Source: Arenimonas sp. (lineage in GTDB: Bacteria; Pseudomonadota; Gammaproteobacteria; Xanthomonadales; Xanthomonadaceae). From it: DNA of 64,000 nucleotides. The stretch covers positions 41,668 through 105,667 of the forward strand of contig NZ_JASGHN010000001.1 of the NCBI RefSeq assembly GCF_047602345.1, in the 5' to 3' direction. This document shows, piece after piece, positions 25,323 through 38,451 of the stretch. The notes below the pieces were generated by a model. It was not told where the DNA came from and ran no database searches. It saw only the letters and a program-made list of their open reading frames with translations. The first letter of the stretch is position 1, and each line of letters begins with the position of its first letter. The translations under genes were made by a program, and so were the position numbers.

Positions 25323-25754
25323 TCAACCGGCCAGCGCGAGCTGATCGCAGCGAGAGCCATCGGCCGCCGCGACCGCGGCCGACATCAGGCTGGCATGCTT
25401 GCGGCTGATGCGCGCGTCGCGCACGCCCTTTTCGTTCAGGCAGAAATCCGCCGCCGCGCGCTCGATGTCCCAAAGTTGCGTTTCGACGGCGTTGATGAAA
25501 TCGCATCCGAGCCGGTAGGCCTGGGAATCGTTCAGCGCCGTCCGGCGCCAGTCCTCGAACTCGTCGGCGGCGATGGCGAACACGCTGTCCATCTTGCCCA
25601 GGCACAGGTCCACGATGCGATCGAAGTTGCGCGGGTTGCGCCACGAGGATTCATGGCTTCCCATGTCCGCCGCGAAGGCGACGAGGCGAAGGTCGAAATC
25701 GGCCTTTTCTCCCGCCAACCTGTCGGCGATCGCCTGGTTCAATGCCATCGACAT
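25323..25754 (-). CDS. Hypothetical all-helical protein
   Basis: GAGGA RBS before ATG 25754; plausible helical sequence; no family recognised. Confidence 0.55.
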   Translation of the reverse strand: MSMALNQAIADRLAGEKADFDLRLVAFAADMGSHESSWRNPRNFDRIVDLCLGKMDSVFAIAADEFEDWRRTALNDSQAYRLGCDFINAVETQLWDIERAAADFCLNEKGVRDARISRKHASLMSAAVAAADGSRCDQLALAG

Positions 25755-25840
25755 GGTTTCCTCTGTGCTCCCTTTCCCTTGGCAAGAAAGAACGCGCAAT
25801 GACGCGCGAACAGGACAGCGCAATCGATCCTCGCCGCTGA

Positions 25841-25858
25841 GCATGACCATGGTCATGC
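25841..25858. promoter_or_regulatory. Perfect 18-bp palindrome GCATGACCATGGTCATGC, candidate operator
   Basis: Self-complementary; sits between the divergent starts at 25754 and 25972. Confidence 0.5.
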
Positions 25859-25971
25859 ACGCTCCGACCCCGGCAACGAAAATCGTTCGCGTTGGGGCGC
25901 GATGCGACGATTCTCATGCGCTGAGACGGGCCCACGGCTTGCTGGGCTGCCTTTACCGGAACACCGGCTGC

Positions 25972-28365
25972 ATGAACGCCCTGCCCTCGCTTGCCTCCGA
26001 ACACGAACTTTCCGCCGACAATCCGCTGGTGACGCGGCTCGCGCGAAAGTACGCGGACCGAATCACCGGCCGCATCGACATACCTGCTTGCCCGGCCATT
26101 CACGCGCCGCTGCCAGCGGCAGTGCCGACAGCCTTGGCGATCGCCCTGCGAGAACGCGGGATCCGCAGTCTCTACAGTCACCAGGCGCAAAGTTGGGAAG
26201 CGGCGCAACGGGGCGAACATTTTGTCGTCGTAACGCCAACGGCCTCTGGCAAGACGCTCTGCTACACGCTGCCCGTGGTGACGGCAGCGATGCGCGAACG
26301 CAGCAAGGCGTTGTACCTGTTTCCAACCAAGGCGCTGGCGCAGGATCAGGTCGCCGAGCTGCTCGAGCTGAACAAGGCGGGCGCGCTCGGCCTGCGCGCC
26401 TGCACCTTCGACGGCGATACGCCCGGCGACGCGCGGCAGGCGATCCGCCTGCATGGCGACATCGTCGTCAGCAACCCGGACATGCTGCACCAGGCCATCC
26501 TTCCGCATCACACGAAATGGGCGCAGTTCTTCGAGAATCTGCGCTACATCGTCATCGACGAAGTTCACACCTATCGCGGCGTGTTCGGCTCGCATGTGGC
26601 CAATGTGATTCGCCGGCTCAAGCGCATCTGCGCCTTCTACGGGGTCGCACCGCAGTTCATCCTGTGCTCGGCCACGATCGGCAACCCGAAGGAGCACGCC
26701 GAGGCCCTGATCGGCGCACCGGTCACGGCCATCAGCGAAAACGGCGCTCCGCGCGGAGCGAAAACGGTGCTGCTGTGGAATCCGCCGGTCGTGAATCCGG
26801 ATCTCGGCCTGCGCGCCTCGGCGCGCTCGCAGTCCAACCGCATCGCACGACAGGCGATCAAGTCCGGGCAGAAGACACTGGTCTTCGCGCAGTCGCGAAC
26901 GATGGTGGAGGTCCTGACGAAATACCTGAAGGACGTGTTCGACCACGACCCGCGCAAGCCGGCGCGCATCCGCGCCTACCGCGGCGGCTACCTGCCGAAC
27001 GAACGGCGTGCTGCCGAAAAGGACATGCGGGCCGGAACGATCGATGGCATCGTCAGCACTTCGGCGTTGGAACTCGGCGTGGATATCGGCAGCCTCGATA
27101 TCGTGGTCTGCAACGGCTATCCGGGATCGATCGCCGCCACATGGCAGCGCCTGGGACGCGCCGGTCGACGACAGCAGGCCTCGCTGGGCGTGATGGTGGC
27201 GAGCAGCGACCCACTGGACCAGTACCTCGTACGCAATCCGGAGTTTTTCAGCGGTTCACCGCCGGAACATGCACGCTTGCACGCAGACCAGCCTCTGATC
27301 CTGCTCGACCACATCCGCTGCGCGGCGTTCGAACTGCCGTTCCTGCGTGGAGAGACTTTCGGCCAGGTCGATGCGGCGCCTTACCTCGAACTGCTGGGCG
27401 AGACCGATGTCGTGCACCGCGAGGCGGAGCGTTGGGAATGGATCGCCGACAGCTATCCGGCCAATGCGGTCGGACTGCGCTCGGTGGCCGACGGCAATTT
27501 CCTCGTCGTCGATCGCGGCGAAGGACGCCAGACCATCCTGGCCGAAGTGGACTACAGCGCCGCGGCCCTGACCCTGTACGAGGGGGCGATCCACATGGTG
27601 CAGTCGGTGCCCTACCAGGTCGAAAGGCTCGACTGGGCCGGACGCAAGGCATTCGTCACGCGCACGAATGCGGACTACTACACCGACGCGATCGACTACG
27701 CCAGACTCAAGGTGCTGGCCGAATTCGCAAGCACGCCGGCGAACGAAGGCAGCACGCATCACGGCGAGGTGCACGTGGTCCGGCGCGTATCGGGCTACAA
27801 GAAGATCCGCTACTACACGCACGAGAACATCGGCTACGGACCGGTGAACCTGCCTGACCAGGAACTGCATACGACCGCGGTGTGGTGGCAACTTCCGCAG
27901 GCCGCGCTGGAGGCGCGATTCGCCTCGCGCCAGGACGCGCTGCACGGATTCCTCGGAGCAGGTCATGCCCTGCACCTGGTCGCCACGCTGACCGTCATGG
28001 CGGAATCGCGCGATCTGCAGAAGGCCGTCGGCAGCGGCGATGGCGCCTGGTTCGTGTCGTCCGATGCGTCCGGCCGCGCGCAATTGCGACGCGCCGAAGG
28101 CGGCGGCATGGAACCCCGTGAGACGGATCGCTTCGTCCCCACGATCTATCTCTACGATGCTTATCCGGGCGGTATCGGATTATCCGAGCCGCTGTTCGAA
28201 CGCCGCGCCGAACTCGCGATCAAAGCGCTGGACCTGGTGGCTGGATGCGACTGCCGTGTCGGCTGTCCCGCCTGCGTCGGCCCGGTATTGTCCTCGGATG
28301 AAAGCGCGACGCGTTCGCCGCGCCAACTGGCGCTGGAAGTTCTGCGCATGCTGGCCGACGCATGA
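25972..28365 (+). CDS. mrfA: SF2 DEAD/DEAH-box helicase with C-terminal DUF1998 zinc domain (MrfA/YprA/Hrq1 family)
   Basis: TPTASGKT, IDEVHTYRGVFGSH, SAT, TSALELGVDIG, QRLGRAGR, C-terminal CDCRVGCPAC. The start is uncertain; an in-frame ATG also exists at 25843. Confidence 0.85.
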   Translation: MNALPSLASEHELSADNPLVTRLARKYADRITGRIDIPACPAIHAPLPAAVPTALAIALRERGIRSLYSHQAQSWEAAQRGEHFVVVTPTASGKTLCYTLPVVTAAMRERSKALYLFPTKALAQDQVAELLELNKAGALGLRACTFDGDTPGDARQAIRLHGDIVVSNPDMLHQAILPHHTKWAQFFENLRYIVIDEVHTYRGVFGSHVANVIRRLKRICAFYGVAPQFILCSATIGNPKEHAEALIGAPVTAISENGAPRGAKTVLLWNPPVVNPDLGLRASARSQSNRIARQAIKSGQKTLVFAQSRTMVEVLTKYLKDVFDHDPRKPARIRAYRGGYLPNERRAAEKDMRAGTIDGIVSTSALELGVDIGSLDIVVCNGYPGSIAATWQRLGRAGRRQQASLGVMVASSDPLDQYLVRNPEFFSGSPPEHARLHADQPLILLDHIRCAAFELPFLRGETFGQVDAAPYLELLGETDVVHREAERWEWIADSYPANAVGLRSVADGNFLVVDRGEGRQTILAEVDYSAAALTLYEGAIHMVQSVPYQVERLDWAGRKAFVTRTNADYYTDAIDYARLKVLAEFASTPANEGSTHHGEVHVVRRVSGYKKIRYYTHENIGYGPVNLPDQELHTTAVWWQLPQAALEARFASRQDALHGFLGAGHALHLVATLTVMAESRDLQKAVGSGDGAWFVSSDASGRAQLRRAEGGGMEPRETDRFVPTIYLYDAYPGGIGLSEPLFERRAELAIKALDLVAGCDCRVGCPACVGPVLSSDESATRSPRQLALEVLRMLADA

Positions 28366-29165
28366 GCGCCGCGATCGATCGGCTCAGGCTTCTCAGGCAG
28401 GACGCGGGAAGCGCAACGCCAGTGATGGCGCCCAGCCCTGTTCCGGATGAGCTGCGCCGGCTGCTGGGCATCCGTGCACGAGCCAAGGCACCCGCTCGAG
28501 TCGCGCCCGATCGTTGGCTGACAGGCGATCAGATCTCGCCTGGCCTGCGTTTCCTGGAACAGTTCCATGAAGCGCCCGAACTCCCCGACGAGATCGACGC
28601 CGATTTCGCCCGAATGGGTCGATTCCGGACCAGCGACCTGCTGTTCTTCGATACAGAAACCACCGGCCTGGCCGGCGGCACGGGGACGCGTGCGTTCATG
28701 ATCGGTGCGCTGGACGTACAGGACGACCGGCTGAGGTTGCGGCAACTGTTGACCACGACCATGGCCGCCGAAACATCGATGCTGCAGACATTCGCCGACT
28801 GGATCGGCCCGCAGACTGCGCTCGTCAGCTACAACGGCAAGAGCTACGACAGACCGTTGCTGTCGACGCGCTATCGCCTCGCGCGGCTTCCCGATCCGCT
28901 ACGCGATCGCGCCCATATCGACCTGTTGCATCCGGTGCGCCGTCGCTGGCGCGGGGCCTGGGAGAACTGCCGTCTCGGCACGGTCGAGCGGCAACTGCTC
29001 GGCGTATTGCGCGAGGACGATCTGCCGGGCTCGGAAGCGCCGCGTGCGTGGACCAGCTATCTGAGAGGCGGTTCGGCCGCGAACCTGCGTCGTGTCGCCA
29101 CGCACAATGCGCAGGACCTCAGGAGTCTTGCCGGTATCTGCTTCGCCCTGGATCGGATGCGGTGA
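28362..29165 (+). CDS. mrfB: DEDDh / RNase H-like 3'-5' exonuclease (MrfB/YprB family)
   Basis: FFDTETTGLAGGTG, SYNGKSYD, HIDLLH, HNAQD; ATGA overlap with the helicase stop. Confidence 0.82.
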   Translation: MSAAIDRLRLLRQDAGSATPVMAPSPVPDELRRLLGIRARAKAPARVAPDRWLTGDQISPGLRFLEQFHEAPELPDEIDADFARMGRFRTSDLLFFDTETTGLAGGTGTRAFMIGALDVQDDRLRLRQLLTTTMAAETSMLQTFADWIGPQTALVSYNGKSYDRPLLSTRYRLARLPDPLRDRAHIDLLHPVRRRWRGAWENCRLGTVERQLLGVLREDDLPGSEAPRAWTSYLRGGSAANLRRVATHNAQDLRSLAGICFALDRMR

Positions 29166-29202: not shown

Positions 29203-29293
<91 letters not shown>

Positions 29294-29374: not shown

Positions 29375-31360
29375 TCAGCCCTTGGCGGGCTGGAAGAAGA
29401 AGCCGCCGCTCTCGTGGCCGGCGAAGCGGATCGGGGCGTACTGCGGCACCTGGGCCAGGGGCGAGTTGGTCGCGTTCAGGGCGACCGAGGTGGACACCTC
29501 GCGGAACACGCGCTGCGCTTCGACCAGCTTGTTGTTGTCCTGCAGGACGTTCAGGAAGGCCTTGGCGAAGAAGCTGTGGTTGCCGGCGCCGGCGTCCGGG
29601 ACCGGCATCACGCCGCCCGAAGTCATCGCCAGGCGCGAGCGACCGTTGTTCATGGCCTTCACCCACGGCGTCCACTTGTCGGCCGGCATCGAATTGGCGT
29701 CGAAGCTCGGCGCCGAAGCGCGGGTCATCGTGCCGGAGTAGCAGGAGTCGGCGACGACGAGGACATGCTTGGCCTGGGCGGCATTGAGGATGTCGCTGAC
29801 GGCCGAGTTCGAGATCCAGCTCTTGCTGTTTCCCGGCGCGCCGTCGCTCGGCACCCAGTAGCCCTGCTTGCCGGCGGCGTCGATTTCGCCATGACCCGCG
29901 TAATAGATCAGCAGATTGTCCTGCGGACCGACCTTCTCGCGCATTTCGTTGAGCGCGGTCAGGATTTCCAGCTTCGACGCATTCAACAGCAAAGTGGTCT
30001 GGAAACCATAGCGCGAGCGCAGGACATTGGACACGGCCGTCGCGTCGGTGGCGGCGGTCTTCAGCCCCTCGTATCCGGCGTTGCGGTAGGTGTTGTTGCC
30101 GATCACCACCGCGTAATAACGGCCAAGCTTCACGTCACCCGGCAGCGTACCGCTGGGCGTGGCCGCCGTCGTCGACGTCGTGGCGCCGCCGGCCTGCGGG
30201 ATCACGCTGAAATCGAGCTGCGCGCTGGCGCCGCGGTTGTCCACCGCGACGACCTTGACCGGCGAACCCGCGGCTGCGACGTCGATGTCCGCATTGAAGC
30301 TGCCGTTCGCGGCGATGTCGACCGGCTTGCCGTTGACGGTGACCTGCTTGATCGCCTTCGGCTGGCTGACGCGACCGACGAGGCGGTGCTTGCCGGAACC
30401 GCGCACGACGGCGGTGTTGCGGCCGCGCACGGCGACGAAGGTCGGGCTGAGGATGTCGAGCTTGACCGGTGCGCTGGCCATCAACGCGCCGCTGCTGCTG
30501 CCCGTGCGCTGTTCGAGCGCGACGATCTGGTCGCGCTGGCCGGTGATCTGCTGTTGCTGCGCCAACACCTGGTTCTCGAGCAGGCGCACGAGTTCGCGAT
30601 CCTGGCCCTGCTTGGCCTGGGCGAGCTTGCCTTCGGTTTCCTGCAACTGGCGTTGCGAAGCCTGCAAAGCGCTGCGCTTCTCGGCGAGCTGCTGCTGCAA
30701 CTGCTTCACCTGCTGCTGCAGTTCCTGCGAACGCTCGCGCTCGTCCTGCACCTGGCCCTGCAGCGTGCCGATCGTGTCGTCCTTGGCCTTGAGCTGGATC
30801 TCGACTTCGGACGCGTACAGCAATTCGTCCTGGATGCCGGAACCCTCGCGGTACAGGTTCAAGGCCATGGCCTGGTCCTGTTGCACGCCCAGGCCTTCCT
30901 CGTACAGGAAGCCGAGATTGATCTTGGCGCGGTTGTAGCCCTGGTCGGCGGCTTTCTTGAACCACTGGAAAGCCATGCCGTAATCCGGCGCCGTGCCGAG
31001 ACCTTTCGAATAGATCTCGCCCACGTTGTTCTGCGCTTCGGCGCTACCGGCCATCGCCTGGTCCATCCAGACCTTCAACGCGGTCTGGTAATTCGCACGA
31101 TCCTCGGAGACGTATTCGCCACCGCGGATCTGGCAATCGGCCTGGGTCGTGCGAATCGGACGCCGTGCGGTGAGGTACGTCGCCTGGCGGCCGAGCGAAC
31201 GGACCTGTCCGGGCAACAGGCAGTCGACGATGAGCAGGTCCTCGGCGTTCTTCACGGCGGCGCGTGGCGCCTCTGCCGGGATACCGGCAAGCACCACCAC
31301 GAGAGCGGAGGCTAGAACGCTGAATCGGGACGTTACAGGACAGCGGTTGGACGATGACAT
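29375..31360 (-). CDS. Secreted caspase-family (peptidase C14) protein with Sel1 repeats, coiled coil and Ig-like domain
   Basis: Signal-like N-terminus; Sel1 AQNNVGEIYSKGLG / AKINLGFLYEEGLG; Q/E-rich coil; YYAVVIGNNTY, IYYAGHG, VADSCYSG dyad; GGAG RBS before ATG 31360. Confidence 0.85.
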   Translation of the reverse strand: MSSSNRCPVTSRFSVLASALVVVLAGIPAEAPRAAVKNAEDLLIVDCLLPGQVRSLGRQATYLTARRPIRTTQADCQIRGGEYVSEDRANYQTALKVWMDQAMAGSAEAQNNVGEIYSKGLGTAPDYGMAFQWFKKAADQGYNRAKINLGFLYEEGLGVQQDQAMALNLYREGSGIQDELLYASEVEIQLKAKDDTIGTLQGQVQDERERSQELQQQVKQLQQQLAEKRSALQASQRQLQETEGKLAQAKQGQDRELVRLLENQVLAQQQQITGQRDQIVALEQRTGSSSGALMASAPVKLDILSPTFVAVRGRNTAVVRGSGKHRLVGRVSQPKAIKQVTVNGKPVDIAANGSFNADIDVAAAGSPVKVVAVDNRGASAQLDFSVIPQAGGATTSTTAATPSGTLPGDVKLGRYYAVVIGNNTYRNAGYEGLKTAATDATAVSNVLRSRYGFQTTLLLNASKLEILTALNEMREKVGPQDNLLIYYAGHGEIDAAGKQGYWVPSDGAPGNSKSWISNSAVSDILNAAQAKHVLVVADSCYSGTMTRASAPSFDANSMPADKWTPWVKAMNNGRSRLAMTSGGVMPVPDAGAGNHSFFAKAFLNVLQDNNKLVEAQRVFREVSTSVALNATNSPLAQVPQYAPIRFAGHESGGFFFQPAKG

Positions 31361-31385
31361 TGGGCGCAGCTCCAAGGGAGTGTCA

Positions 31386-31430
31386 CGGCATGCGCTGAAC
31401 CGTTTGCAGCGGCGCGCATGCCGCTATACT
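31386..31430. promoter_or_regulatory. 10-bp inverted repeat overlapping a putative promoter in the caspase/autotransporter divergent gap
   Basis: CGGCATGCGC (31386-95) / GCGCATGCCG (31414-23), followed by TATACT at 31425-30. Confidence 0.45.
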
Positions 31431-31468
31431 CGGTGAGGAATATATAACCGGAATCCAGGGGAAAAGCG

Positions 31469-34400
31469 ATGAGCTTCCAGTCCGCCGTCATAACGAAGGC
31501 CGCAGCGATTTTCGGCCACGGGCGTTCCCTGGCCGCACGGGCGTCCGCCCTGTGCGTCCTGCTCCTGCTCGGCGCATGGTCCGGCAGTGCTCAGGCATCC
31601 TTCGGTTGCTACCTGCAGCACACCAGCACCCAGTTCCAGCAGGGGGCGCCGGGCGCCACCTACAATCACAGCTTCACCATCGTCGACGATAGCGGTACCA
31701 GTTGCGCCGGTACGATCTCGGGCACGGTCAGCATCACCGGCGACACGACGGGCGGCGGCACGCTGAACAACGGCGGCGGCCCCGTGACCACCTTCAACTG
31801 GTCAGGACCCGGCGGTTCCAGCTTCAGCTTCACGTCGACGACGGGCACCTTGCCGGGCGGCGATCTGGCCATTCAGGCCGACTGCCTGGTTGGCTGCTTC
31901 GGCGGCTCGACCTTCCTGACCTATTTCGACGAAAGCAGCGATCTCTACGATTTCCATGCCACGACGCCGACGACCGTCGTCACGACCGACCTGCAGCAGG
32001 TCACGATCGGAGCGAAGTCGCTTTACAACAACAACCCCGCGACCGAGACGGTGAGCTTCTACAACGTTACCGGCACGCCGATCCTGCTCGCCACCGATAC
32101 GCCGGACGTCAACGGCGAGGTCAGCTACAACTTCTTCAGCAGCACGCCGGGTACCTATGCGCTGCGCGCGGAAGTGAACTGCATCATCATCACCGCGACG
32201 TCGACGACCTGTCCGCCGCCGGACATCGATTATTCGGTGACGGTCGAAGCGACCAGCCTGAGCGCGAACGACCTGTCGCTCGAAACGTTGCCGTCGACGC
32301 CGCTGCCCTTGAGCGTGACCTATCGCAGTCCCAGCCTGCTGGCGCCCGACGGCAGCTACGTGTTCTGGAACATCAGCAGCAGCCCGCCGGGCGGCGACGG
32401 CAGCATCGACAACAGTTCGCAGACCAGCGGCGGCATCGCCACGGCCGATTTCAGCGCCAGCGTGCCTGGCGAATATCAGGTACAGGCCAGCACGAACTGC
32501 TTCAGCTGCTTCGCTCCGTCGATGGTCACCTTCACTGTCACCGTGATCAACCGCACGATCGTCATCGTCAGCGGCGACGGACAGACCGGTGCGACCAACC
32601 AACCGCTGGACGATCCGCTCGTCGCGCAGGCCCAGAACAACGGCATTCCGACGCCGGGCGTCGGCATCACCTGGGCCATCATGTCCGGCTCGGCCAGCCT
32701 CTCGCCGACCGGCGCAGTCACCGATGGCGCCGGCAACGCGACCGTCGCCGTCACCATGGGCGCCACGCCGGGCCCGGTGGTGGTGCGTGCGACGCGCAAC
32801 GACGACACGAGCAAGTTCGTCGAGTTCAACCTGAACTCCACGCTGACGCGCGACCTGGTCATCGTCTCCGGCAACAATCAGAGCGCTCCGACCGGCCAGA
32901 ACCTGCCGCAGCCCTTGTTCGTGCGTGCCATCGACAACGCGACCGGCGCCTCGGGCGTTCAGATCGACTGGAGCGTGGTGTCCGGCTCGGCGTCCTTCCC
33001 GGCGCCCAGCACCACGACGAACGCGGCTGGCCTGAGCAATACGCAGGTGACGCTGGGCGCGACCGCCGGTCCGATCGTCGTGCGCGCCACCCGCGCCGAC
33101 GACACCGGCCAATACGTCGACTTCAACCTGACCGCCACGCTGACCCGACAGCTCGTCATCGTCAGCGGCAACGGCCAGGAAGGCTCGCCGAACGCGACGC
33201 TGGCCAGCCCCTTCGTGGTCGAGGCGCGCAACAACAACGTGGCTGCGCCGGGAACCGGCGTGACCTGGTCCATCGTCACCGGTGGCGGCAGCCTGTCCGA
33301 CACCTCCACCACCACGGACGGAAGCGGCCACGCGGACAGCACCTTGACGCTAGGCTCGTCCGGTTCCGTGACGGTGAAAGCGGCGCGCAGCGACGATTCG
33401 TCGGTGTACGTGCTGTTCAACGCCAGCACGCTGAAACTGGCGGACCTGCCCGGCATGTCGCCGACCCAGCGCGCCATCGCCGAAGCCATCGACAGCTTCT
33501 GTCCCGAACTCGGCGCCGAGTACGGCGGCGGTGGTGGCGGTGGCGGCTCGGGTGGACCGCCCTCGACCGACGGTTTCGCCGCAGCGACGGCGACCGTCGA
33601 TCCCAGCGATGGCCAGTACGACCTGTGGCAGCAATGCCAGGAACTGATCACCGCCTCCGGCAGCGATCCGCAGGGCGTGCTCGACGCACTGAACGAGCTG
33701 TATGCCGATATCGCCCTGGTGCAATCGGAAGCCGGTCTGATCGCGGCGCGCGCGCAGTTCGACAACATCAAGGTGCGTATCGCTGCCCTGCGTAGCGGTA
33801 CGCAGCGCACGAGCTTCGGCGGCCTGGCGTTCACCAACACCAGCGGCAGCCTGCCGATCGGTTCACTCCTGCAAGGGCTGGCTGAGGGCGACAACCCGGA
33901 TTCGGCGTCCGCCGCCGGGTTCACGCGTTGGGGCTTCTTCGCGGCCGGCTCCATCGGCCGCGTCGACACCAAGCCGGGCGACGTGACGCCGGGTTACGAC
34001 TCCGACATCACCGGCCTGACGATCGGCTTCGACTACCGCAAGTCCGACAGCATCATCTTCGGCGGCACGATCGGCTACACGAAGCAGACCGACGACCTGC
34101 TCGGCCGCGAGGGCGAGCTGGATACGCACGGCTACAGCGTGTCGTTGTTCGGCACCTGGTACAAGGCCGACAGCTGGTACACCGATGCCGTGTTGAGCTG
34201 GGGCCGCAATACCTACGAGGCCGAACGCTGGATCAACTACACCCTGACCGGGCCGGGCGGCACGATCACGGTCATCGACCAGCACGCGCGCAGCGAATCC
34301 GATGGCGACAGCTTGACCTTCGCCGCCACCGTCGGCCGCGACTTCAACAAGAACGGCTGGGGCTTCGGTCCTTACCTGCGCCTGCTCTATACCCGCCTCG

Positions 34401-34801
34401 AGTTCGACGAAATGGTCGAGGAAACCGATGCGGGCCCGGGCAGCGGACTGGCGCTGGTGGTGGATGCGCGCGAACTCACTTCCTTCAGCGGCGTGCTCGG
34501 CGGCAAGCTGACCTATGCGCACAGCACCAGTTGGGGCGTGATGATCCCGCACGTGCAACTGGAATGGCAGCACGAGTTCAAGGACGACCCGTCGCAGGTC
34601 ACGGCGCACTTCCTGTTCGACCCGAGCGAAACGCCCTTCACGGTCACCGGCGATAGCCTGGATACGGACTATCTGCGCCTCGGCTTCGGCATGTCCTTCG
34701 TGCTGACCAAGGGCCGCTCGGGCTTCTTCATGTTCGAGCGTTCGTTCCAGGACCGGATCACGCAGAACCGACTGGCGCTCGGCCTGCGCCTCGAGTTCTG
34801 A
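31469..34801 (+). CDS. Autotransporter (type Va) adhesin with Ig-like (Big-1/invasin-like) passenger repeats
   Basis: Signal peptide ending SAQA; T/S/G-rich beta passenger; C-terminal barrel from WGFFAAGSIG to LGLRLEF with terminal Phe. Confidence 0.88.
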   Translation: MSFQSAVITKAAAIFGHGRSLAARASALCVLLLLGAWSGSAQASFGCYLQHTSTQFQQGAPGATYNHSFTIVDDSGTSCAGTISGTVSITGDTTGGGTLNNGGGPVTTFNWSGPGGSSFSFTSTTGTLPGGDLAIQADCLVGCFGGSTFLTYFDESSDLYDFHATTPTTVVTTDLQQVTIGAKSLYNNNPATETVSFYNVTGTPILLATDTPDVNGEVSYNFFSSTPGTYALRAEVNCIIITATSTTCPPPDIDYSVTVEATSLSANDLSLETLPSTPLPLSVTYRSPSLLAPDGSYVFWNISSSPPGGDGSIDNSSQTSGGIATADFSASVPGEYQVQASTNCFSCFAPSMVTFTVTVINRTIVIVSGDGQTGATNQPLDDPLVAQAQNNGIPTPGVGITWAIMSGSASLSPTGAVTDGAGNATVAVTMGATPGPVVVRATRNDDTSKFVEFNLNSTLTRDLVIVSGNNQSAPTGQNLPQPLFVRAIDNATGASGVQIDWSVVSGSASFPAPSTTTNAAGLSNTQVTLGATAGPIVVRATRADDTGQYVDFNLTATLTRQLVIVSGNGQEGSPNATLASPFVVEARNNNVAAPGTGVTWSIVTGGGSLSDTSTTTDGSGHADSTLTLGSSGSVTVKAARSDDSSVYVLFNASTLKLADLPGMSPTQRAIAEAIDSFCPELGAEYGGGGGGGGSGGPPSTDGFAAATATVDPSDGQYDLWQQCQELITASGSDPQGVLDALNELYADIALVQSEAGLIAARAQFDNIKVRIAALRSGTQRTSFGGLAFTNTSGSLPIGSLLQGLAEGDNPDSASAAGFTRWGFFAAGSIGRVDTKPGDVTPGYDSDITGLTIGFDYRKSDSIIFGGTIGYTKQTDDLLGREGELDTHGYSVSLFGTWYKADSWYTDAVLSWGRNTYEAERWINYTLTGPGGTITVIDQHARSESDGDSLTFAATVGRDFNKNGWGFGPYLRLLYTRLEFDEMVEETDAGPGSGLALVVDARELTSFSGVLGGKLTYAHSTSWGVMIPHVQLEWQHEFKDDPSQVTAHFLFDPSETPFTVTGDSLDTDYLRLGFGMSFVLTKGRSGFFMFERSFQDRITQNRLALGLRLEF
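32552..33442 (+). repeat. Three 297-bp (99 aa) intragenic Ig-domain repeats
   Basis: RTIVIVSGDGQ (32552), RDLVIVSGNNQ (32849), RQLVIVSGNGQ (33146): exact 297-nt period. Confidence 0.9.
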
Positions 34802-34928
34802 TGGCGACCAGCCCGGAAACGGACCATCGACGCGCCGCCCGGCCACCCTTGCGGGGAGCCGGGCGGCGGTTAATGATGCGAACAAGTCGCGGGGGCCTCC
34901 CCCTGCCAGGGCGAGACAGGTTCCATCC

Positions 34929-35630
34929 ATGATCGAATTCGGCCACCTCAGCCATGTCGGCCTGCGCCGCGAGCTGAACGAGGACACCTACTACGGCGAC
35001 ACCGAGCTGGGTCTGTGGCTCGTTGCCGACGGCATGGGCGGCCATGAGTTCGGTGAGGTGGCCAGCGCCTTGGCGCGCGACACGGTCGTGCGCGAGGTGA
35101 AATCCGGACGCACGCTGGTCGATTCCATCCGCAGCGCGGACGAAGAGATCATCCGGCAATCGCGCCGACGTGCCGAAGGCCTGCCGATGGGCACGACGAT
35201 GGTCGCGCTGCGCACCAACGACAACCGCTTCGAACTGGCCTGGGTCGGCGACAGCCGCGCCTACCTGTGGAACGGCCAGCTGCGCCAACTCTCCTCCGAC
35301 CACAGCTATGTGCAGGAGCTGATCGATCAAGGCGCGATCACGCCGGAACAGGCGCGCACGCATCCGCACCGCAATGTCGTCACGCAGGCGCTGGGCGTCA
35401 CCGATCCGGAATCACTGAAGGTGGAAACCATTTCGGGCGAACTGCGTCCGGGCTTCCAGATCTTGCTGTGCAGCGACGGTCTGACCGAAGAAGTGGACGA
35501 TGCGACGATCGGCTCGCTGCTTTCGCAACCGGAACTGTCGGCGCAGGAATGCGTGGACCATCTCGTCTCGGCCGCGCTCGACGGCGGCGGTTCCGACAAC
35601 GTCACCGTGGTGCTGTTGCGCCGCGTCTGA
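34929..35630 (+). CDS. PP2C/PPM family Ser/Thr phosphatase
   Basis: VGLRRELNED, VADGMGGH, GTT, WVGDSRAY, HPHRNVVTQALG, LCSDGL, GGSDNVT. Confidence 0.93.
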   Translation: MIEFGHLSHVGLRRELNEDTYYGDTELGLWLVADGMGGHEFGEVASALARDTVVREVKSGRTLVDSIRSADEEIIRQSRRRAEGLPMGTTMVALRTNDNRFELAWVGDSRAYLWNGQLRQLSSDHSYVQELIDQGAITPEQARTHPHRNVVTQALGVTDPESLKVETISGELRPGFQILLCSDGLTEEVDDATIGSLLSQPELSAQECVDHLVSAALDGGGSDNVTVVLLRRV

Positions 35631-35669
35631 TCGCGCTTCGCCGATGCGGCGAAGCGGAACCTCGCGAAT

Positions 35670-37211
35670 TCAGTCCTTGGGCAGCGCCGGAATGCCCGGC
35701 GTCTCGCCGCGTTGACCCGCCTCGGCCGCGGCATGCAGTCGGATCAGGGTTTCATCGGCGGGATCGACGTCCAGTCCGCTCTGCGCCGCGATTTGGCATT
35801 GCGTCCACAACTGCGCACTGCAGGCGCGATGGCTCATCTTGCGGAAGAACGAAACGATCGCGCCAACGCCCGCCTTCGCGCGCGCGTTGTCCGGCTGCGC
35901 GGCGAGCACCTTGCGATACAGGCCGAGTGCGCTGTCGTCCTCGGGGAAGGTCAACTGCCGGCCCGGATCCTTGTTCGTGCCGTAATCGAGGTAGTTGTCA
36001 GCCTGGGTCAAGGCGGTCTCGATGTCCTCCGACGACATGGCCGCCGCCGCGTCCGTCACCGGCAACGTCGTCGACAGGATGCTGCCCTGGTCGTCGCCGC
36101 CGGCCGGCGTCAGCGTCACGGTAGGCTGCGTGCCGTTGGTGCCGTTGGCGTTCGTCGCATTCGTGTCGACATCGGCCGCAGGCCAGAACTTCCAGGCAGC
36201 TACCGCCAGCAACGCGACGGCGGCCAGCGAGGCGACGGCATAGAGGCCCTTGCGCGAAGGCGCTTCCTGCCCTTTGCTCACATTGATGCGCGTGCGCTGC
36301 TGCGTGGCGCCGGCACCGCCGGCGATGCGTTGGGCGCTGCCCGCCTTGCGCGCGCTCGACTGATGCAGCTTCGCCGTCTCCGGCGCCTCGGCCACGAGCT
36401 TGTGGATGGCCTCGACCAAGGCCGCGCCGGTGTTGTAACGCTCGGCCGGCTGCTTGGCCATCATGCCGTTCAACAGCGGCTGCAGGATGGAGTACTCCTC
36501 CGGCAGCGTCGGGACAGGATGCGTCACGTGCATCAAGGCCACAGTGAACGGATCGCTGGCCTGGTACGGCGGATTCCCCACGAGCAGTTCGTAGAGCACG
36601 GTGCCGAGGCTGTACAGATCGGAGCGGCCATCCACGGACTCGCCGCGCGCCTGCTCCGGGCTCATGTAATCGGGCGTGCCAATCGACGCGCCGGCGACGG
36701 TCGAGCTGTTGCTTCCGTCCATGGCCTTGGCGATGCCGAAGTCGGCCAGCACCACGCGGCCGTCGTTGCGGAACAGCACGTTGCCCGGCTTGACGTCGCG
36801 ATGCACGAAGCCCTTCTGGTGGGCGAAATCGAGGCCGAGCGCGATGTCGGCGATGATGTCGAGCACTTCCGCCAGGCTCAGGCCGCCCTCGTCGACGCGA
36901 TCCTTTAGCGTGCCGCCGGGAATGAATTCCGCGGCGAGGTAATACACGCCGGCGTGCGCGCCGATGTCGTACACCGTCACCAGGTTCGGATGCTGCAGCT
37001 TGGCGGTGATCTTGCCTTCGGTCAGGAACCGGCTGGCGAACTCGCTGTTGGCGGCCAACGCCGGCGACATCACCTTCAGCGCGACTTCGCGATCGAGCGA
37101 TTCCTGCACGGCGAGGAACACCGATGCCATGCCGCCTTCACCGATCGGACGCAGGATGCGGTATCCGGGGATATTGATGTCGACGGCGGTGAGGAGGACG
37201 GTCGCGTTCAC
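35670..37211 (-). CDS. Membrane-anchored Hanks-type Ser/Thr kinase with periplasmic TPR-like C-terminal domain
   Basis: IGEGGMASV, ALK, HRDVKPGN, DFG, GTPDYMSPE; TM helix; LTFPEDDSALGLYRKVLAAQPDNARAKAG. Confidence 0.92.
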   Translation of the reverse strand: MNATVLLTAVDINIPGYRILRPIGEGGMASVFLAVQESLDREVALKVMSPALAANSEFASRFLTEGKITAKLQHPNLVTVYDIGAHAGVYYLAAEFIPGGTLKDRVDEGGLSLAEVLDIIADIALGLDFAHQKGFVHRDVKPGNVLFRNDGRVVLADFGIAKAMDGSNSSTVAGASIGTPDYMSPEQARGESVDGRSDLYSLGTVLYELLVGNPPYQASDPFTVALMHVTHPVPTLPEEYSILQPLLNGMMAKQPAERYNTGAALVEAIHKLVAEAPETAKLHQSSARKAGSAQRIAGGAGATQQRTRINVSKGQEAPSRKGLYAVASLAAVALLAVAAWKFWPAADVDTNATNANGTNGTQPTVTLTPAGGDDQGSILSTTLPVTDAAAAMSSEDIETALTQADNYLDYGTNKDPGRQLTFPEDDSALGLYRKVLAAQPDNARAKAGVGAIVSFFRKMSHRACSAQLWTQCQIAAQSGLDVDPADETLIRLHAAAEAGQRGETPGIPALPKD

Positions 37212-37267: not shown

Positions 37268-38002
37268 TCATCCGCCGGGCGCGATGTCTTCCGTCGGCCA
37301 CAACAGGCGGCCGCCGGCCTTCTTGCGGATCTGCTCGAGCCTGGCCGCATGCGCCGCCAGCTCGCCGGCATCGGCTCGGAGTACGCGTCGGCTGGCCGGC
37401 GTGCCGGACTGCAGCGCGATGGTGGGCGTCGCTTCGCGCTGCGCTTTCGCCTGCGCCGCCGCCATGCTCAGACCCAGGTCGCCCTGCCCGGCCGTCATGG
37501 ACAGATAGACCTCGGCCAGCAGCTCGGCGTCGAGCAGGGCGCCGTGCAGCTTGCGATGCGCGTTGTCCACGCCCAGTCGCTTGCACAGCGCATCGAGGGA
37601 GTTGCGCTGCCCCGGATAACGCTCGCGCGCCAGGGGCAAGGTATCGAGCACGCCCGAATGCTCGCGGATGCGCCCGTAGTGCGGGCCGGCCAGGGACAGT
37701 TCGTTGTCGAGGAAGCCGACGTCGAACTCGGCGTTGTGGATGATCAACTCGGCCCCGCGGATGAATTCGAGGAATTCGTCGACCACTTGCGGGAAACGAG
37801 GCTTGTCCGACAGGAATTCGCGCGTCAGGCCGGTCACTTCCTGGGCGCCCGCCTCCATCTCGCGGTCAGGGTTGAGGTAACGATGGAAATGCCGACCGGT
37901 CGGCCGACGCTCCAGCAGTTCGATGCAACCGATCTCGACGACGCGATTGCCGCGTTCCCATGAAAGTCCGGTCGTTTCCGTGTCGAGAACCACCTGCCGC
38001 AT
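37268..38002 (-). CDS. dnaQ: DNA polymerase III epsilon subunit
   Basis: VLDTETTG, HNAEFDVGFL, HGALLDAELL. Confidence 0.97.
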   Translation of the reverse strand: MRQVVLDTETTGLSWERGNRVVEIGCIELLERRPTGRHFHRYLNPDREMEAGAQEVTGLTREFLSDKPRFPQVVDEFLEFIRGAELIIHNAEFDVGFLDNELSLAGPHYGRIREHSGVLDTLPLARERYPGQRNSLDALCKRLGVDNAHRKLHGALLDAELLAEVYLSMTAGQGDLGLSMAAAQAKAQREATPTIALQSGTPASRRVLRADAGELAAHAARLEQIRKKAGGRLLWPTEDIAPGG

Positions 38003-38451
38003 CAGCCCATCTCCTTTTCGCGCATCGCCTCGGCCGCCTGTCGCGCCAATGCATCCACGCGCTCGTTGTCGGCATGACCGGCATGGCCTTTGACCCAACG
38101 CCAATCCACCTGATGGCGCGCTGCCGCCGCGTGCAGGCGCATCCACAGGTCCTGGTTCTTCACCGGATCGCCTCCCGATGTTTTCCAGTTCCGTCGCAAC
38201 CAGTTCGGCAGCCATTCGCCGATGCCCTGCTGGACGTATTTCGAATCGGTATGCAGCACCACTCGGCAGGCACTCTTCAACGCTTCCAGCGCCATGATCG
38301 CCGCCATCAGTTCCATGCGGTTGTTCGTCGTATGTGCTTCGCCGCCGGAGATCTCCCGTTCCGTCTTGCCATAACGCAACAGCGCGCCCCAGCCGCCGGG
38401 GCCAGGGTTGCCGAGGCAGGCGCCGTCGGTGTGGATCTCCACCTGCTTCAA
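38002..38451 (-). CDS. rnhA: Ribonuclease HI
   Basis: [43 protein letters not shown]. Confidence 0.98.

Follow-up and report, generated by a model that had tools for sequence, protein, structure and literature searches.

We analysed a window of 64,000 nucleotides from Arenimonas sp. (contig NZ_JASGHN010000001.1) and focused on the interval from 29375 to 37211, which lies between the tRNA-Ser(CGA) gene and dnaQ. Four genes fill this interval, coding for an exported caspase-like protease, a type Va autotransporter with an immunoglobulin-like (Ig-like) passenger, a PP2C phosphatase and a receptor-type Hanks Ser/Thr kinase. The original prediction, made from the sequence of the window, had proposed that these genes occupy the whole interval and act together, and the coordinates, domains and flanks are all as it claimed. 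Based on the comparisons described below, the interval is probably one copy of a widespread, uncharacterised cell-envelope module that signals from the outer membrane into the cytoplasm in the manner of the TagQRST-PpkA-PppA pathway, using other parts and, in this genome, without a type VI secretion system (T6SS). The features of the locus are the following:

29203-29293, minus strand: tRNA-Ser(CGA), the left boundary, next to the protease gene in every Arenimonas locus examined and in genome G027
29375-31360, minus strand: exported protease with Sel1, coiled-coil, Ig and caspase-like (C14) parts, identified through Pfam, NCBIfam, an AlphaFold2 (AF2) model and fold matches
31361-31468: divergent intergenic region with a dyad and a promoter-like element
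31403-31430, plus strand: promoter-like TTTGCA-16-TATACT; element and leader conserved across Arenimonas species
31469-34801, plus strand: type Va autotransporter with a variable Ig-like passenger (autotransporter beta-domain at 176.8 bits, three Big_1 domains)
34929-35630, plus strand: cytoplasmic PP2C phosphatase, Stp1-like (220.8 bits)
35634-35656: perfect hairpin of 10 bp in the gap where the PP2C and kinase genes converge
35670-37211, minus strand: receptor-type Hanks Ser/Thr kinase (Pkinase at 165.5 bits)
37268-38215, minus strand: open reading frame (ORF) of dnaQ, the right boundary and next gene after the kinase, with its probable start at 38002

The protease ORF extends to a TTG at 31375, and the ATG at 31360, which has a GGAG upstream of it, is the likelier start. 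With this start the protease and autotransporter genes stand head-to-head across a gap of 108 nucleotides, as had been predicted, and our measurement of the tail-to-tail gap between the PP2C and kinase genes gave the same 39 nucleotides. The dyad reported for the divergent gap is also present (31378-31395 and 31414-31431, with 83% complementarity). A role as a conserved operator is not supported, as its arms differ or are only partly kept in nine other Arenimonas loci; what those nine loci do keep is a promoter-like TTGCA(G)-N17-TATACT and the leader of the autotransporter gene. The hairpin at 35634-35656 is probably a bidirectional terminator, despite its absent T tract. The base composition of the four-gene interval is unremarkable.

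Co-occurrence was examined in 151 genomes of the order Lysobacterales, each at least 90% complete, using as the autotransporter query its C-terminal 411 aa (neck plus barrel) with a match threshold of E<=1e-15. The protease is present in 70 of the 151 genomes and an autotransporter C-terminus like that of the window protein (P0002) in 72, including all 70 protease-positive ones; the two autotransporter-only genomes, G104 and G128, are fragmented assemblies. Nine of the 11 families have identical counts for the two genes (2/19, 1/7, 16/19, 2/2, 2/2, 5/19, 1/19, 14/19 and 2/18), and the remaining two differ by one genome each, namely G104 and G128. Because these matching distributions are patchy in several families (2/19, 1/7, 5/19, 1/19 and 2/18), they imply repeated joint gain or loss. 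In 67 of the 70 genomes the autotransporter barrel gene and the protease are no more than about 6 kb apart, a tally read off the coordinates by eye and not by script. The protease and this one autotransporter subfamily are an obligate pair and form the core of the module. A dependence of all autotransporters on the protease was considered and rejected, as the general PF03797 model is positive in 104 of the 151 genomes, including members of protease-free families. Since the P0002-like subfamily alone tracks the protease, the coupling is to that subfamily and not to autotransporters as a class.

The receptor Hanks kinase is a frequent and specific partner of this pair. In the same 151 genomes, strong matches to its ectodomain (E<=1e-8) occur solely in protease-positive genomes, nearly all of them beside the pair. 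Most Arenimonas genomes share the four-gene arrangement, and so do genomes of at least two other families of the order, in every case with tRNA-Ser(CGA) on one side and dnaQ-rnhA on the other. By itself this could reflect inherited gene order, so the exceptions tell more. Among the genomes in which the arrangement is altered, G151 has the kinase still beside the protease with the autotransporter elsewhere; G031 and G033 have PP2C-kinase at dnaQ, with the protease-autotransporter pair at another site, where its two genes remain neighbours; G032 and G034 carry the pair at another locus as co-directional genes, autotransporter first; and G028 and G039 have a different kinase abutting the protease. 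Two Arenimonas genomes, G010 and G019, carry tRNA-Ser-PP2C-dnaQ without the protease, without this autotransporter type and without the orthologous kinase, even though the kinase normally lies on the opposite side of PP2C from the pair. The PP2C phosphatase is the looser and weakest member of the group.

The search was then widened beyond the order. An alignment of the protease was compared with one genome per species, yielding >592 relatives, and the best 80 loci were taken with 10 kb of flank on each side, after which all of their ORFs were clustered without using any labels. These 80 loci span Proteobacteria, Acidobacteriota, Nitrospirota and Methylomirabilota. The most common conserved neighbours of the protease are the autotransporter (58/80 loci), the kinase (45/80) and PP2C (27/80), followed by a lipoprotein alpha/beta-hydrolase of about 280 aa with a GHSGGG motif (19/80) and by dnaQ (13/80, in Lysobacterales only); any other gene is found in at most 12 of the 80. 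Forty-six of the loci are outside Lysobacterales, from Ketobacter, Hahella, Oleiphilus, Alcanivoracaceae, Methylococcaceae, Rhodocyclaceae, Sedimenticola, alpha- and deltaproteobacterial metagenome-assembled genomes, Acidobacteriota, Nitrospirota and Methylomirabilota, and they have unrelated flanks and permuted gene order and orientation. Counting neighbours within 3 kb of the protease in these 46 loci, the autotransporter is present in 32, the kinase in 24, one or the other in 41, the hydrolase in 19 and PP2C in 7. The kinase is often only 0-150 nucleotides from the protease in the surveyed loci, and five genomes without an autotransporter at the protease locus encode autotransporters elsewhere. 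The original prediction had named neighbourhood and phylogenetic profiling of the families as its check, and protease and autotransporter homologues that do not co-localise elsewhere as the result that would speak against it. Profiling gave decisively the opposite result, with the pair co-localising both in the order (67/70) and in distant phyla.

The recurrent lipoprotein hydrolase carries the motifs GHSGGG and LYLGRPCY and is found outside Lysobacterales, at L041 8990-9805, L059 11990-12841 and 17 further loci; the Arenimonas genome yielded no convincing homologue.

Two Acidobacteriota genomes, G188 (L117 2735-9353) and G253 (L116 1769-7966), link the kinase physically to a caspase domain. 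Here the autotransporter gene is followed by a kinase-caspase fusion and then by an N-domain-Sel1 protein, with the genes overlapping. The fusion joins Pkinase, a transmembrane (TM) segment and Peptidase_C14 in one protein, and the catalytic His and Cys are intact in the G188 copy. Its N-domain-Sel1 partner also carries a caspase-like domain; the G188 copy of this partner has a coiled coil as well and keeps the His, with Ala at the position of the catalytic Cys. The autotransporter passenger at the G188 locus is of the Calx-beta type. In this acidobacterial variant the caspase domain, located at the kinase's outer end, thus stands where the TPR-like ectodomain is otherwise found. No such fusion was present among the nine protease-locus kinases that were domain-scanned, and the fusions were found only once Acidobacteriota were sampled.

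Relatives of the protease and kinase are also found inside T6SS clusters, at L089 and L067 (Methylococcaceae), L082 (Sedimenticola) and L108 (Methylomicrobium). The order at L089 (7595-21905) is kinase, TssJ, protease, Fha, TssK, TssL, TssM and TagF-PP2C. Pfam identifies TagF at L082; at L108 it identifies TagF-PP2C together with a sheath gene and a protein with an FHA domain. The T6SS genes at L067 were assigned because they cluster with their L089 counterparts, the FHA and TagF positions of L067 being unscanned. The L082 kinase bears the same type of ectodomain motif (GRLxxPxGSNA) as the kinases described below. At a further locus, L085 (12189-14852), the Hanks kinase adjacent to the protease has an FGE-sulfatase ectodomain, the domain type of TagR. 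FGE-sulfatase domains are often fused to metacaspases (PMC3501461).

The window protease matches Peptidase_C14 (PF00656) at 80.2 bits against a cut-off of 21.4 and Sel1 at 58.1 bits, and it is the sole C14 gene of the genome. Its parts are listed here, with residue numbers following P0001 and counted from the TTG at 31375:

31088-31246, minus strand: N-terminal beta-rich domain of about 50 aa (about residues 44-96), the best-conserved part of the protease
30836-31087, minus strand: two Sel1 repeats (about residues 93-180)
30503-30814, minus strand: antiparallel coiled-coil hairpin (helices 188-257 and 260-291)
30197-30460, minus strand: Ig-like beta-sandwich (residues 306-393)
29396-30118, minus strand: caspase (p20-like) domain (residues 420-660)

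Across 47 diverse homologues there is no variation in the two catalytic residues, His495 (AGHG) and Cys545 (DSCYSG), or in C52, C81 and R84-G85-G86 of the N-terminal domain. The AF2 model (predicted local distance difference test, pLDDT, 83.7) has the caspase-hemoglobinase fold, matching MALT1, GSU0716 and caspases at E ~1e-10. Searches of solved structures by sequence and fold identified only the Sel1, caspase and barrel parts of the two pair proteins; the N-terminal domain has no Pfam family and received no assignment from these searches. Other families of the order have a coiled coil that exceeds this one by about 170 aa. The signal peptide of the window protease, the lipobox at the start of some homologues and the invariant cysteine pairs together point to an exported, envelope-located enzyme, and its likely compartment would be the periplasm. 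The DSC motif is similar to the one in metacaspases, enzymes that cleave after Arg or Lys; by this analogy it points to a basic (Arg/Lys) P1 specificity, for which it is the only hint. The family comprises >3,500 sequence clusters, with the public names being only "caspase family protein" or "hypothetical". Elsewhere in the genome the N-terminal domain is confined to one small secreted protein, which consists of two copies of it in tandem (G000:C6:984351-985124; L113 6352-7125) and whose gene adjoins, on the opposite strand, a large regulator-like gene with an ORF of 1,225 aa.

The partner protein has all the marks of a type Va autotransporter, with PF03797 at 176.8 bits, a 12-strand barrel, a long helix and a signal peptide readable in the sequence. 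Downstream of the signal peptide, its parts are:

32522-33517, plus strand: three Big_1 Ig-like repeats of the passenger (about residues 352-683)
33461-33802, plus strand: conserved neck, a helical bundle with C678 and C723, then a long helix (747-778) ending in ALRxG
33803-33928, plus strand: low-confidence spacer of about 40 aa in the AF2 model, from the neck helix to the first barrel strand
33929-34798, plus strand: 12-strand beta-barrel, with EstA, AaaA and NalP as the closest solved structures

The passenger is the variable part. Its identity among Arenimonas species is about 34-41%, whereas that of the barrel is 52-62%, and across the family its size ranges from nearly nil (proteins of about 400 aa) up to about 2,000 aa. 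The constants of the family are the two cysteines (C678 and C723), the ALRxG helix end with its nearly invariant Arg, and the barrel. Most members also have a spacer of about 35-50 aa, which, judging from the model of residues 641-1110 (pLDDT 87.6), is a candidate periplasm-exposed segment. In EstA and AaaA the passengers stay attached to their barrels.

The motifs VALK, HRDVKPGN and ADFG (PF00069, 165.5 bits) make the kinase a Hanks-type enzyme. It is divided as follows:

36423-37163, minus strand: catalytic domain (residues 17-263)
36186-36248, minus strand: hydrophobic span (about residues 322-342), with predicted TM segments in orthologues
35673-36179, minus strand: TPR-like C-terminal ectodomain of about 170 aa (residues 345-513)

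The Stk1/PknB PASTA kinase model NF033483 covers only the kinase half and scores 305 bits, below its cut-off of 450, and Pfam and NCBIfam scans found no PASTA domain in the window kinase. Kinases adjacent to the protease typically have one transmembrane span, and in 14 kinases at protease loci this segment is followed by a common ectodomain motif, GRLxxPxGSNA or a close variant. Among the six Hanks kinases of the Arenimonas genome, a profile of this ectodomain matches the window kinase only (E 4e-8). The phosphatase is above the Pfam thresholds for PP2C_2 and PP2C, and with 220.8 bits it is just under the cut-off of 230 for the Stp1/IreP equivalog NF033484. It is not the only such phosphatase of the genome, as a second PP2C_2 gene is located at C6:210818.

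With regard to how the parts work together, we infer where the protease docks, what its substrate is, which way the signal runs and what triggers it, as follows. The autotransporter would be the surface-exposed element in the outer membrane. The periplasmic protease may dock on the constant neck, spacer or barrel of the autotransporter via its N-terminal domain and Sel1 repeats, and would link the condition of the surface or outer membrane with the kinase ectodomain, whether it draws kinases together or cleaves after Arg or Lys. The kinase would then phosphorylate cytoplasmic targets, with PP2C as the usual reset enzyme that reverses the phosphorylation. As a broader and more tentative proposal, possible but short of probable, exported bacterial caspase homologues could be the periplasmic transducers of an unrecognised class of trans-envelope sensor, in which a type Va autotransporter is the receptor in the outer membrane or at the surface and caspase-fold association or cleavage switches on a Hanks kinase, firing the T6SS in some bacteria and other responses in others such as Arenimonas. 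In that case bacteria would have a counterpart of proximity-induced caspase and kinase signalling.

Several observations weigh against an envelope-signalling module of this kind. The original prediction had noted that no T6SS or FHA gene is in the window, and whole-genome searches are consistent with this: no TssC was found in the genome, and its three FHA proteins are encoded on contigs C5 and C6 only. For Arenimonas the analogy to T6SS signalling therefore supplies no output. Roughly half of the distant loci lack a kinase inside 3 kb, so kinase signalling may not be the core function. PP2C is near the protease in just 7 of the 46 distant loci, and it is kept beside dnaQ in the relatives G010, G019 and G035, which lack the other three genes. 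PP2C thus behaves partly as a backbone gene, and in Arenimonas it may serve all six kinases rather than the module. The topology of the spacer comes from a low-confidence part of the AF2 model. Finally, related genomes are non-independent samples, and the tallies ignore kinship.

The original prediction had offered two functions for the group, a contact-sensing relay or the shedding of an adhesin by a dedicated protease. The functional linkage underlying both is supported, with PP2C as the weaker member, and sequence does not decide between contact or damage sensing and shedding. The two are not mutually exclusive. Shedding is the main rival, although in our assessment a rather unlikely one. 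According to it, the protease is a dedicated maturation or shedding enzyme of the autotransporter subfamily that works inside-out like LapG/LapD/LapA and cuts the neck or spacer after the conserved Arg at the periplasmic face of the barrel, with the kinase and PP2C only setting the timing. The protease-autotransporter tie is indeed the tightest of all (70/70 for co-occurrence and 67/70 for adjacency) and exists in many kinase-free loci. The constant part of the autotransporter, with its neck, nearly invariant Arg and spacer, would suit such an enzyme, as would the metacaspase-like DSC motif with its suggested Arg/Lys cleavage and the closeness of the barrel to those of EstA and AaaA, which keep their passengers. 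There is also a precedent in LapG, a cysteine protease of the periplasm that, controlled by an inner-membrane receptor, frees an adhesin from the surface (PMC3032545). But shedding leaves unexplained both the kinase-caspase fusion that is paired with a catalytically dead partner and the placement in the phosphorylation slot of T6SS clusters, and the minimal autotransporters of about 400 aa carry almost no passenger to release.

It is also conceivable, if improbable, that only the protease and autotransporter are linked, and that the kinase and PP2C are adjacent through inherited gene order at dnaQ and belong to unrelated signalling. Within the order this has some appeal, since the backbone tRNA-Ser-PP2C-(kinase)-dnaQ-rnhA is conserved across it, G031 and G033 keep PP2C-kinase at dnaQ with the pair elsewhere, and the genome encodes a total of six Hanks kinases and two PP2C phosphatases. 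However, kinases with the same motif abut the protease amid unrelated flanks outside Lysobacterales, and the kinase is fused to the caspase in the two Acidobacteriota genomes. Even within the order, G010 and G019 lack the protease, autotransporter and kinase jointly and retain PP2C, though the kinase is on the far side of PP2C, and in G151 the kinase stays with the protease when the autotransporter is elsewhere.

Very improbable, in our view, is a role of the caspase-like protein as a cell-death or anti-phage effector (NTPase- or EACC1-associated conflict type) with incidental neighbours. Bacterial caspase homologues are often discussed in relation to programmed cell death (PMC3501461), and there is a weak match to the NCBIfam model "caspase, EACC1-associated type" (NF047832). 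This match scores 75.2 bits, far under the cut-off of 140; the signal peptide, the lipobox of some homologues and the invariant cysteine pairs point to export; and ORF clustering, with the PADLOC library unscanned, revealed no NTPase, EACC1 or phage genes among the conserved neighbours. Least credible of all is an independent arrival of the four genes without any functional link, which the original prediction had allowed for, as the mixed gene orientations are all that speaks for it and co-occurrence, adjacency, fusion and cross-phylum recurrence all contradict it.

The flanks of the interval were examined as well. The 3' side of tRNA-Ser(CGA), at 25573-29165, carries genes for an MrfA-like DEAD-box helicase (DEAD, Helicase_C and MZB zinc domain) and an RNase_H_2-type exonuclease, without counterpart in the four other Arenimonas loci compared; possibly they are a small pair of repair or defence genes that was inserted here. 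An origin of the four genes as part of a tRNA-linked island was considered and is not supported. The four genes are on the 5' side of tRNA-Ser with no integrase, their arrangement is kept across families, and the species-specific insert is on the other side of the tRNA (25573-29165). At the right boundary (37268-38451), the dnaQ ORF has a 71-codon 5' extension that overlaps the end of rnhA, and the true dnaQ start is probably Met72, at 38002. The rnhA and dnaQ genes are co-directional and abutting, and belong to the backbone that is kept throughout the order. A multihaem cytochrome-like protein of about 450 aa (Cytochrome_C554/C7) is encoded between the kinase and dnaQ in several of the order's other families, at L093 2662-4035 and in the same slot in L095, L106, L110 and L011-L013; the gene is absent in Arenimonas.

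To our knowledge, almost no function has been assigned to bacterial caspase homologues outside studies of cyanobacterial cell death. Their genomic tie to an autotransporter subfamily and to receptor kinases gives them a concrete and testable role in the envelope. If the envelope-signalling reading is true, type V secretion proteins, which are usually viewed as stand-alone adhesins, would be joined to Ser/Thr phospho-signalling. We know of no well-studied sensor of the T6SS-firing phosphorylation pathway other than TagQRST of Pseudomonas aeruginosa, and in some bacteria the module would be a second kind of sensor for it. Our literature search found no publication that describes the module or joins a caspase or metacaspase with an autotransporter, Sel1 or a Hanks kinase in this way, and a 2026 review of T6SS accessory factors makes no mention of caspase, autotransporter or Sel1. 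It is most likely a previously undescribed system for carrying signals across the cell envelope.

Parts of it resemble known systems. The protease shares with prokaryotic metacaspases and orthocaspases a C14 p20-type domain with a His-Cys dyad. The Sel1-metacaspase architecture was seen in a 2012 survey, in which about 6% of 671 sequences had Sel1 (PMC3501461), and again in a metagenome survey of 2016 (PMC4933709). Neither survey links these proteins to autotransporters or Hanks kinases, the word "autotransporter" being absent in both, and the N-terminal disulfide domain, coiled-coil hairpin and Ig domain are not described there. The window protease can also be compared with the type of processing protease represented by NalP, which is dedicated to acting on autotransporters. 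NalP is a surface-exposed subtilisin autotransporter itself, whereas the window protease is a separate and apparently periplasmic clan CD enzyme.

The LapG/LapD/LapA system differs from the module in its parts: its protease, LapG, is of the transglutaminase-like type rather than a clan CD caspase, its adhesin is type I secreted, and its signal is cyclic di-GMP instead of Ser/Thr phosphorylation. None of the four window proteins matched LapG/LapD/LapA-type families in Pfam or NCBIfam. The likeness is one of logic only: in Pseudomonas fluorescens, too, the gene of a periplasmic cysteine protease is tied to that of a large adhesin at the surface, and control is exerted by a receptor in the inner membrane that has a periplasmic domain (PMC3032545).

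The closest parallel is the TagQRST-PpkA-PppA-Fha1 pathway of the P. aeruginosa H1-T6SS, in which TagQ in the outer membrane and TagR in the periplasm are proposed to bring PpkA ectodomains together, with complex formation induced by outer-membrane damage (PMC13713981). The parts themselves are unrelated, an autotransporter standing in place of the lipoprotein TagQ, a Sel1-caspase protease in place of the FGE-type TagR, and the kinase having a TPR-like ectodomain. Moreover, the Arenimonas genome has no T6SS, the window has no Fha gene, and a search confined to 29375-37211 showed neither TagS or TagT nor any FGE-sulfatase or ABC-like gene. The plan of the two is nonetheless alike: each has an outer-membrane part, an adaptor in the periplasm, a Hanks kinase that crosses the membrane once and bears a periplasmic domain, and a PP2C phosphatase that opposes the kinase (PMC13713981, PMC13584744). 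The kinase next to the protease at L085 has the FGE-sulfatase domain type of TagR as its ectodomain, and in T6SS clusters relatives of the module occupy the very position of the TagQRST-PpkA-PppA pathway, next to Fha and TagF-PP2C.

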